Positions 45,001-48,000 of a DNA stretch of 64,000 nucleotides are shown here, piece by piece. How positions within the stretch are numbered: position 1 is the stretch's first letter; the number at the start of each line of letters is the position of its first letter. Source of the DNA: Escherichia coli. Lineage in GTDB: Bacteria > Pseudomonadota > Gammaproteobacteria > Enterobacterales > Enterobacteriaceae. Location of the stretch: assembly GCF_041248615.1 (NCBI RefSeq), contig NZ_CP158426.1. One strand, written 5' to 3'. Made by a program: the position numbers.

Positions 45001-48000
45001 TTTCAGACGGGCCATGCACCCGCAAATGATCATCGCGTCATCGTCACAACATTGCGGGCGAGATTTTACTTTTGAAGGAATTAATCCCTTAAAACCGGCG
45101 GCAATGGACGACCAGGTCACATCTTCATGATTATTAGCCGCCCACGCACCCCAACGCTCAAGAACCATCTGAATATCACGCATCAACTTACTCCACAAAA
45201 ATCAGACCAGAACGCCAATTACAAGCAAAAATCAACAAAACAGTATTAGTTGATTGTTATCTCTGACTTCATACTCCTGTTCCTGTCAGGGTTTTGGCGT
45301 AATTCTTCAGTATTCGGTAATCGGTCAAAACAGAACCGAGGAAACGATATAAGCGCAGACGCCCCCAGCGGTGGCGAAGAAGTTCTGCCATATTAAACTC
45401 AAACATCATTCATTCCCCATTTCGGTGATGGTCAGTTCCAGCCTCCCACCTTTGGTAACAGGCATCTTCACAACGCGGTAATCAACGACCTGAGCATCAT
45501 CCAGCCAGAAACCTGCTTTAGTGAGTGCGTCAAAAGCGGCTTTTTGCAGATTATCCAGGTCACGGCGACGGCGATCCGGCATGTGGCACTCAATGCGGAT
45601 TTTCACAGGCATAGCCAGGCCGATATCCAGCATTGCGTTTTTAATGATTCGGGCGACGTTATCGCGGTATGCCTGCCCCTCTGCGCTGACGTGCGTGCGC
45701 CCGCGATTATGGCGGTAATAGCGATTATTGCTCGGAGGCCAGGGTAATGTGATGCTGTAGGTATTCACGCCTTAATAACCCCCTCTTTCAGCCACATAAC
45801 CTGTGTTCTCGCCATACCTTCCAGCGCGCATTCTTTTGCATATGCAGCATCGACTTGCTTGGCATGCCCTTTACCGGCAATCTTCTGTATGCGCTAAACC
45901 TAGATAGAATCCACTCTGTGCACATTGAAGCCCGCTCTATGCTTTCTTTCAGGTATTGAAGGGATTGAGATGGGCTAAGCATTATTGGCCTCCTGCATCA
46001 GGAGAAAGACAATCATGGCGGCGCGGAGAGGTCTGGTATCAAATATTGGGCTTACGCCTTTTGCATCCACACACCATTCAGTTAACTGGTCTAAGATAGA
46101 AATCCTGTATTTCTCAATAATCGGCCATGAAGCGCTCGGATCATTGCAGTAGTCAGGCAAATGATTTAATGGCTCAAAAGTTGTATCAGCATTTCCGTAA
46201 TACCATTTGTTGGTGTTATTCCCTGATGTTTCCGGTTTACTTGCCCAAAGGCCTTTAAAAATTATGTCTCCTACCATTCTGTTAATTTCAAAATCACTTA
46301 ACTGTGAATAATCCATTGTCATTTCCTCGCACGATATCTTAGCCACCGGATATCCCACAGGTGGGCTGTGTAATTGAAGGTTTTTACGTCAGATTCTTTT
46401 GGGATTAGCTTGCGTTTATTTCTGGAGCGTTTCGTTGGAAGGTATTTGCAGTTTTCGCAGATTATGTCGGTGATGCTTCGTCGCTGTCGTCTCATGCAGC
46501 CCTCCTGACGCCCTGCCCGATCGCCATCAATGCCGCTTTGGATACGGTAGTAAACATCCGTCGAGGACTGATGAACGGTCGCCAAATCAGCAGCATGGAG
46601 CCTTTGCTGTTTCCCTTCTTCTCCAGCCCTGTCGATGGTTCGATAAAATTAATCCGTCCATCAGTGATAATACGAACTTCGTCAACACTCTCCAGAGCCT
46701 TGCTGAACCATCCGACAGACATATCCTCTGGCACAAGCATCACTACCGTCTGTCGCTGTTGTATACACTGCTCAGCGGCTTTTTCCACCCACGGCCTGAT
46801 ATTGCTGTACGGTGGGTTATTCCAGATTGCACCGTGGCTTACCCACTCAGAATTGAGCGCGTCGTCGTCCTCAGTTAGCCAGTGAGCGCACAGAGCATTT
46901 TTGTCGCTCGCTGCCGAATCCAGCCAGAATCCAAACTCAATATCCAGTGCATCAAAAAGCCAAAGCGGCGTTTGCCAGCAGTCCTTGTCGTGTGCTGGCG
47001 TATTTGATTTGATAGTCATGCAGCCCGATCTCCCCATCGCGCTTTCCATTCGAGAGCCAGTCGCGCTTCGTCTGACCACTTAACGCCACGCTCTGTACCG
47101 AATGCCTGTATAAGCTCTAATAGCTCCGCAAATTCGCTTACACGCATCCTGCTGGTTGACTGGCCTATTACCACAAAGCCATTCCCGGCAAGGTTAGGAA
47201 CAACATCCTGCTGCTTTAATGCTGCGGTAAACACACACTTCCAGCTTTCTGCATCCAGCCAGCGACCATGCCATTCAACCTGACGAGAGACGTCACCTAA
47301 GCAGGCCCATAGCTTCCTGTTTTGGTCTAAGCTGCGGTTGCGTTCCTGAATGGTTACTACGATTGGTTTGGTTGGGTCTGGAAGGATTTGCTGTACTGCG
47401 TGAATAGCGTTTTGCTGATGTGCCGGAGATCGAATTTCAAAGGTTAGTTTTTTCATGACTTCCCTCTCCCCCAAATAAAAAGGCCTGCGATTACCTGCAG
47501 GCCTGTTATTAGCTCAGTGATGTAGATGGTCATCTTTTAACTCCATATACCGCCAATATCCGTTTCATCGTGGCACTCTGGCGACACTCCTTAAAAATCA
47601 GGTTCGTGCTCATCTTTCCTTCCCGTTCTTCCTTGGTAGCAAACCGGTAATACACCGTTCGCCAGACCTTACCTTCGATAACCAGAAGACCTGCCCGTGC
47701 CATTTTAGCCGCGGCCTGATTTATGCTGGTTACTGTTGCGCCTGTTAGCGCGGCAACGTCCGGCGCACAGAAGCTATTATGCGTCCCCAGGTAATGAATA
47801 ATTGCCTCTTTGCCCGTCATACACTTGCTCCTTTCAGTCCTAACTTAGCTTTAATTTCTGCGATCTTCGCCAGCGCCTGAACACGATTTAGAGGTCTGCC
47901 GCCCATGACAGGAAGTTGTTTTACTGGTTCAGGTATCGTCTCACCACGGTTAATTCGCGCTGTCATACAGGTCAGTTCATCGGCAGCCTTGCGTCGTAAT

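Follow-up and report, generated by a model that had tools for sequence, protein, structure and literature searches.

A ybcO (DUF1364) pseudogene tail upstream of rusA at a probable recombination joint in the nin region of an Escherichia coli prophage

The nin genes of lambdoid phages are non-essential and tightly packed, with stop and start motifs that overlap from one gene to the next (PMC8022706), and lambdoid phages swap DNA with prophages that reside in the host (PMC3945230). The mosaics formed by lambda, P22, L and HK97-type phages all concern this same packed and non-essential region, with its overlapping stops and starts, and they differ in whether the Holliday-junction resolvase module is ninG/rap or rusA. 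DUF1364, the family of YbcO, is a group of His-Me finger nucleases (group 7) that typically are neighbours of rusA and Q (PMC5714182), and YbcO has a solved structure (PDB 3g27). Unbroken gene orders are available for comparison: ninE-ybcO-rusA-ylcG-Q is intact in PhiR34_1 and in DLP12 of K-12, ninX-ninF-ninG is intact in P22, and phage L has an intact series of ninX, ninF, orf101, a 96-aa DUF1364 gene and rusA.

The locus described here lies in a window of 64,000 nucleotides of E. coli DNA (contig NZ_CP158426.1), the first 50 kb of which are 99.9% identical to E. coli NRZ14408 (NZ_LT599825.1), with coordinates that match around the junction. The element that carries the junction is a lambda-like prophage integrated at icd. 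On the minus strand, to which all coordinates below refer, the order is O, P, ren, ninB, dam, ninE, ninX, the junction, rusA, ylcG and quuD, and this stretch has what defines a lambdoid nin region, being part of an early-right operon that runs tightly packed on one strand from the replication genes to Q. The gene list and the RefSeq annotation both give ninB (47016-47456), a Dam-type methyltransferase gene (46492-47019), ninE (46319-46495), ylcG (45269-45409) and quuD (44800-45183). The upstream neighbour of the junction, ninX (45975-46316), is intact according to Pfam (PF10765, 61.5 bits) and RefSeq. Downstream, rusA (45406-45768; 120 aa, GTG start) is intact as well; its product is a predicted resolvase that covers profile positions 1-123 of 124 in PF05866 with 82 bits against a cut-off of 22.8, and RefSeq names it 'crossover junction endodeoxyribonuclease RusA' (WP_001099712.1).

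Between ninX and rusA there is a gap of 206 bp made of three parts, namely the first 21 codons of ninF, a filler of 65 bp and the tail of ybcO. The joint is of the same kind as other joints in lambdoid nin mosaics, but it cuts inside two genes and keeps an orphan piece of 65 bp between them. The reading that we favour, with a probability of roughly nine in ten, is that the ybcO tail is an inert pseudogene fragment at the place where a P22/L-type nin region was joined to one of the DLP12/phage-82 type.

DNA alignment, BLASTP, tblastn and RefSeq all place the ybcO (DUF1364; PF07102) remnant at 45765-45854, where it comprises codons 68-96 and the TGA stop, without a start codon. The stretch 45854-45768 encodes YbcO residues 68-96, with 28 of 29 residues identical to the intact 96-aa protein (BLASTP, E=3e-19), and a tblastn search with YbcO against the whole 64-kb window gave the same remnant with E=1.5e-14. 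The intact reference was the PhiR34_1 copy of ybcO, which is 96.6% identical to the copy in K-12 DLP12. Near-identity to the intact ybcO-rusA DNA of PhiR34_1 begins at 45854 (GTCGATGCTGC) and runs through the stop and the rusA start, while upstream of 45854 the similarity to ybcO falls to random level in the alignment. A preliminary description of this DNA had proposed that a DUF1364-type 3' fragment stands directly upstream of rusA on the minus strand, with a stop that overlaps the rusA start. BLASTP, tblastn and the DNA alignment bear out the fragment, and the remnant TGA (45767-45765) does overlap the GTG (45768-45766), forming a GTGA at 45768-45765. The fragment had been given about 37 codons (45765-45881). 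The alignment with intact ybcO, which had been suggested as a check, puts the breakpoint at codon 68 and leaves 29 codons and the stop, an overshoot of 27 nt.

The frame of the remnant is open for 42 codons, up to 45893, and is closed by an in-frame TAG at 45894-45896, with a second TAG at 45900-45902, both read from the frame translation and the sequence. An upstream in-frame stop had also been described and does exist, but the TAG at 45896-45894 sits four codons upstream of 45881 and not directly there. The 13 extra open codons (RIQKIAGKGHAKQ) had no similarity to YbcO by DNA alignment, BLASTP or tblastn and are part of the filler. The idea that they are a divergent DUF1364 allele was rejected, since they are unlike both the DLP12-type and the phage L-type YbcO, and also since the same DNA runs into sequence other than ybcO in Stx1 phages.

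What is left of ybcO shows its descent by sequence identity, by synteny with rusA and by the GTGA overlap. Like the ybcO of K-12 DLP12 and of phage 82 it has its place directly upstream of rusA, but unlike them it is without residues 1-67 (201 nt), without the start codon and without the ybcO ribosome-binding site. Its match to the PF07102 profile covers only positions 62-92 of 92 and scores 17.7 bits, under the gathering cut-off of 29.9, whereas intact PhiR34_1 YbcO reaches 138.7 bits and covers positions 2-92. A complete ORF of about 96 codons with its own start is absent, and the ATGs in frame are all internal (the equivalents of M81 and M87). Residues His32, His58 and His66, and Cys13, 21, 39, 54 and 57, all fall within the absent residues 1-67, and Cys77 alone is left, so that the remnant lacks the His-Me finger core with its His and Cys residues (PMC5714182; PDB 3g27). 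Judged from its sequence, the remnant is unable to make YbcO, because it has no start codon and a TAG upstream, and because the deleted residues hold all of the His and five of the six Cys.

The frame that stays open for 13 codons past the homologous part is the sole hint that an intact ybcO could have been broken by a frameshift in sequencing or assembly, a case that the preliminary description had raised itself and to which we assign a negligible probability. Residues 1-67 are absent in any frame: a relaxed tblastn search (word size 2, E up to 10) of 45300-46700 and of the whole window returned residues 68-96 only. The DNA upstream of the remnant is ninF/ninX and filler, and the gap of 206 bp is too short for a complete ybcO, which needs 291 bp. 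The junction is moreover found at 95% identity or more in 588 of 5,426 complete E. coli genomes and at 99% or more in 571 of these independently assembled genomes, as well as in 27 phage records, and it is therefore not a sequencing error. For comparison, at least 80% of ybcO is carried by 2,961 genomes.

At the other end of the gap is the 5' remnant of ninF, with the start and codons 1-21 (45920-45982), identified by tblastn, BLASTP and DNA homology. In the tblastn search residues 1-21 of P22 NinF map to 45982-45920 with 81% identity, and BLASTP against NinF gives 17 identities over 22 positions, with the homology confined to residues 1-21/22. DNA homology to all ninF alleles that were found (P22, L, H-19B, HK630, mEpX2 and others) ends at 45920. 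Its native Shine-Dalgarno sequence AGGAGG is kept, and so are the 8 nt by which ninF natively overlaps the ninX stop. This ninF remnant (45982-45920) had been overlooked in the preliminary description, although it lies in the same gap.

From the ninF start there runs a chimeric ORF of 64 aa in the ORF list (45788-45982), which consists of NinF residues 1-21 followed by the filler and the ybcO remnant read in the wrong frame; it too had been overlooked, being in another frame (45982-45788) and overlapping most of 45765-45881. It ends with a TGA at 45790-45788, which is closely followed by the motif GAGGGGG and stands 19 nt ahead of the rusA GTG. The chimeric ORF shares with NinF of lambda, P22 and L the residues 1-21 and the place after ninX with the 8-nt overlap, but in place of the cysteine-rich domain (P22 residues 20-44) it has unrelated read-through. 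No Pfam family matched it, NinF (PF05810) included; P22 NinF scores 40 bits on that model against a cut-off of 27.5, and the model spans P22 residues 20-44, which is the part that was lost. The same ORF is labelled 'protein ninF' in the RefSeq record of phage ev207 and belongs to a database cluster of that name with 83 members on at least 1000 contigs. In terms of predicted domain content the name is unjustified and overstates what the ORF holds. The intact ninF start signals probably still drive translation of the chimeric peptide, which most likely would be a by-product.

It could be argued that the junction has a function of its own, the chimeric ORF being translated from the ninF start to yield a new small protein, or else to act as an upstream ORF whose termination replaces the lost translational coupling between ybcO and rusA. 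The native AGGAGG and ATG of ninF are intact, the junction is present in viable phages, and the nin genes are normally coupled by overlapping stops and starts (PMC8022706), which an ORF with its stop at 45790-45788, immediately ahead of GAGGGGG and 19 nt from the rusA GTG, might imitate. Among the roughly half of 69 loci with the filler pattern in IMG/VR that carry the junction there are 12 haplotypes, without indels, and the chimeric ORF is 64 aa long and uninterrupted in all 12. This is weakly compatible with constraint on the peptide, the number of variable sites being small. Those sites, about 15, are concentrated in the part derived from ybcO, where they change both reading frames, and the chimeric protein varies freely there (C>S, W>G, E>K, H>R, A>T). 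Against a function speaks also that unrelated DNA, read out of frame and without a Pfam match, makes up two thirds of the ORF, and that the filler occurs in a Stx1-type context that has neither the ninF start nor such an ORF. The motif GAGGGGG (45779-45785), read from the sequence inside the ybcO remnant and 10 nt before the GTG, is likely the ribosome-binding site of rusA, and the intact ybcO-rusA arrangement of PhiR34_1 has the identical motif; rusA would then have the same ribosome-binding site of its own with or without the junction. We find a functional chimeric ORF very unlikely. Much the same low weight goes to the proposal that the scar is non-neutral, such that termination of the chimeric ORF at GAGGGGG would replace the lost coupling and selection on rusA expression would have spread the junction to about a tenth of the E. 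coli genomes. Under our preferred reading of an inert tail, the remnant most likely does nothing, save that its last 20 nt or so would carry the ribosome-binding site of rusA, with the GTG start of that gene at its very end. The gap as a whole gave no Rfam match at E<=1 and its predicted folding was unremarkable (z = +1.0 and -0.3, with -0.3 for the filler). No promoter or terminator was predicted inside it, and counts over the region were no higher than in shuffled sequence.

The filler of 65 bp (45855-45919), as delimited by the alignments, includes for example GCATACAGAAGATTGCNGGTAAAGG. In DNA alignments no homology was found between it and ybcO, the ninF of P22 or L, or the genes downstream. 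Two Stx1 phages (AU6Stx1 and SH2026Stx1) and about 250 STEC genomes have sequence that is about 88% identical, and have it in another context: there ninE is followed by a short internal fragment of ninF and the filler, and after the filler come a small hydrophobic ORF, an AT-rich cargo gene on the reverse strand, an HNH gene and ninG. Distant BLAST searches in phages and E. coli genomes, and the pattern scan of IMG/VR with its 69 loci, found the filler only in these two contexts, the one of the window and the one of the Stx1 type. One more context came from the scan of species-representative genomes: in E. albertii NBRC 107761 the 3' half of the filler is clustered with the small ORF, another ORF in reverse orientation, a remnant of ybcO that starts at codon 61, and a frameshifted rusA. 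In none of these searches (BLAST in phages and E. coli genomes, IMG/VR, species-representative genomes) was the filler found inside an intact gene. An origin from an integrase gene on the opposite strand, suggested by E. albertii, was rejected, as a secondary deletion there had fused the filler to a truncated integrase of the icd site, and orf101 of phage L was rejected as a source since it has no similarity. In E. coli M8 the neighbouring small-ORF cassette is found at another site, without the filler.

The filler has no SNPs across the 12 junction haplotypes. Where it meets ybcO, a three-way alignment of the window, AU6Stx1 and intact ybcO shows a microhomology of 5 nt, CGATG (45848-45852), which is present both in the filler-type sequence AAACGATGAGG and in ybcO TTGTCGATGCTG, and the parentage switches inside it.

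The simplest origin of the junction would be an internal deletion in one step, within a phage of the L/ST64T type with the order ninX-ninF-(orf)-ybcO-rusA, and without any exchange between phages. Phage L has exactly such an intact order, and a deletion that begins at ninF codon 22 and ends with ybcO codon 67 would result in the gene order that is seen. A single deletion leaves no filler, however, and the 65 bp are unlike orf101 of L, ninF and ybcO, and they are found with other neighbours in Stx1 phages and in E. albertii. In addition, ybcO and rusA of the window are of the DLP12 type, with about 98% identity to PhiR34_1, and not of the L type: the remnant protein is 52% identical to orf136 of L, and DNA similarity around the ybcO-rusA boundary is 78% over 59 bp. 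We therefore regard the one-step deletion as unlikely. A filler unlike orf101 of L and known from other contexts, next to ybcO and rusA of the DLP12 type, argues instead for at least two joining events.

That a deletion or recombination has left the fragment as a scar in the nin region, as the preliminary description had it, is supported, and the scar can be refined to a composite of a ninF 5' part, 65 bp of filler and a ybcO 3' part. In the join between nin regions that we favour, the P22/L-type partner would have supplied ninB, dam, ninE, ninX, ninF and so on, and the DLP12/phage-82-type partner ybcO, rusA, ylcG and quuD. The cost of the join would have been the ninF codons from 22 onward and ybcO codons 1-67. 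A filler of third origin between the two fragments implies that at least two non-homologous joining events would have taken place. A cargo cassette with the filler at its edge may first have taken the place of the ninF 3' end, and a deletion or exchange mediated by CGATG may then have fused the filler to ybcO codon 68. We infer both the order and the mechanism of these events, and find them plausible. The intermediate that they call for, ninX-ninF'-filler-cargo-ybcO'-rusA, was found in none of the 69 IMG/VR loci.

The 1.1 kb around the junction are 100% identical in CFT073, Nissle 1917, UTI89, APEC O1 and many other strains. The same holds for the phages ev207, ev017 and PhiR57_1, and for mEp332, one of the 27 phage records with the junction, the identity is 99.0%. 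mEp332 is a lambdoid phage that has been titred by plaque assay (PMC3442831). Since it carries the junction, a phage can form plaques without YbcO, the NinF domain or NinG, which fits the non-essentiality of the nin genes (PMC8022706). Independent truncations of ybcO have their end-points at codon 61, codon 68 and, in strain EC20-4B-2, nt 258, and strain AST198 has a secondary deletion of a scar of the window type. The stretch upstream of rusA is thus a recurrent breakpoint in decaying prophages.

The fragment is already known as a partial DUF1364 pseudogene and is both common and ordinary. In RefSeq, R2K29_RS15110 of NRZ14408 is exactly 45765-45854, described as 'DUF1364 domain-containing protein, incomplete, missing N-terminus', and the homologous stretches of 90 nt in CFT073 (C_RS29160) and Nissle 1917 (CIW80_RS24160) are annotated alike. 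The sequence of the junction region is identical to the window in all three, but the records note neither the ninF fragment nor the filler nor the chimeric ORF. The fragment matters little, adding one recombination joint to those of the mosaic nin regions in lambdoid phages. Its value is for annotation, where the true pseudogene is 45765-45854 and the rest of 45765-45881 is orphan filler, and the junction sequence could serve to mark a lineage of prophages that includes those of CFT073, Nissle 1917, UTI89 and APEC strains.

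In decaying prophages, breakpoints recur in the stretch upstream of rusA. The ybcO gene, of which the window retains the tail from codon 68, has been cut elsewhere in other prophages: at codon 61 in E. albertii (L081, 2597-3159) and at nt 258 in EC20-4B-2 (L079, 2001-2034). AST198 (L078, 2421-2669) has the same type of scar as the window but with a further deletion that extends into the ead/xis/int region.

The 65-bp filler that separates the ninF and ybcO remnants (45855-45919) is common to the Stx1 phages AU6Stx1 and SH2026Stx1 and about 250 STEC genomes, and is also present in E. 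albertii; the stretches concerned are 1501-1601 in L004, a locus of Stx1-type context, and 3880-3931 in L081. In these Stx1/STEC and E. albertii contexts it directly adjoins a small ORF of hydrophobic character as well as cargo genes on the reverse strand. No original source of the filler was found among phages, E. coli genomes, IMG/VR or species-representative genomes.

The chimeric ORF of 64 aa that runs across the scar (45788-45982, minus strand) is widely named "protein ninF", for instance as gp59 of the RefSeq phage ev207, and its database cluster of 83 members, on at least 1000 contigs, carries the same label. Residues 1-21 are the only part of NinF that is kept, and the ORF has no match to PF05810. 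The name looks like an over-annotation that has been propagated.

The prophage is inserted at icd, with a partial icd copy, annotated as a pseudogene, at one end (10665-10832) and, at the other (about 61787-62612), the integrase and the 3' end of an intact icd gene; the two icd pieces share about 95% identity over 217 bp. Cargo of the lysogenic-conversion type is found in the late region (41445-41738 and 43529-44611): iss, which encodes a lipoprotein of increased serum survival, and a gene for an OmpC/NmpC-like porin, which lies between quuD and the lysis genes and is encoded on the opposite strand. At the tail-fibre end of the prophage is the iron/manganese transporter operon sitABCD (12746-17518). 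As annotated by RefSeq in the near-identical record of NRZ14408, an IS1414 element (IS256-like) has inserted at 15938-17146 and splits sitD. Off-diagonal BLAST hits also revealed a direct repeat of 152 bp within the tail-tip gene gpJ (21229-21380 and 21403-21554), its copies lying 174 bp apart with about 91% identity.
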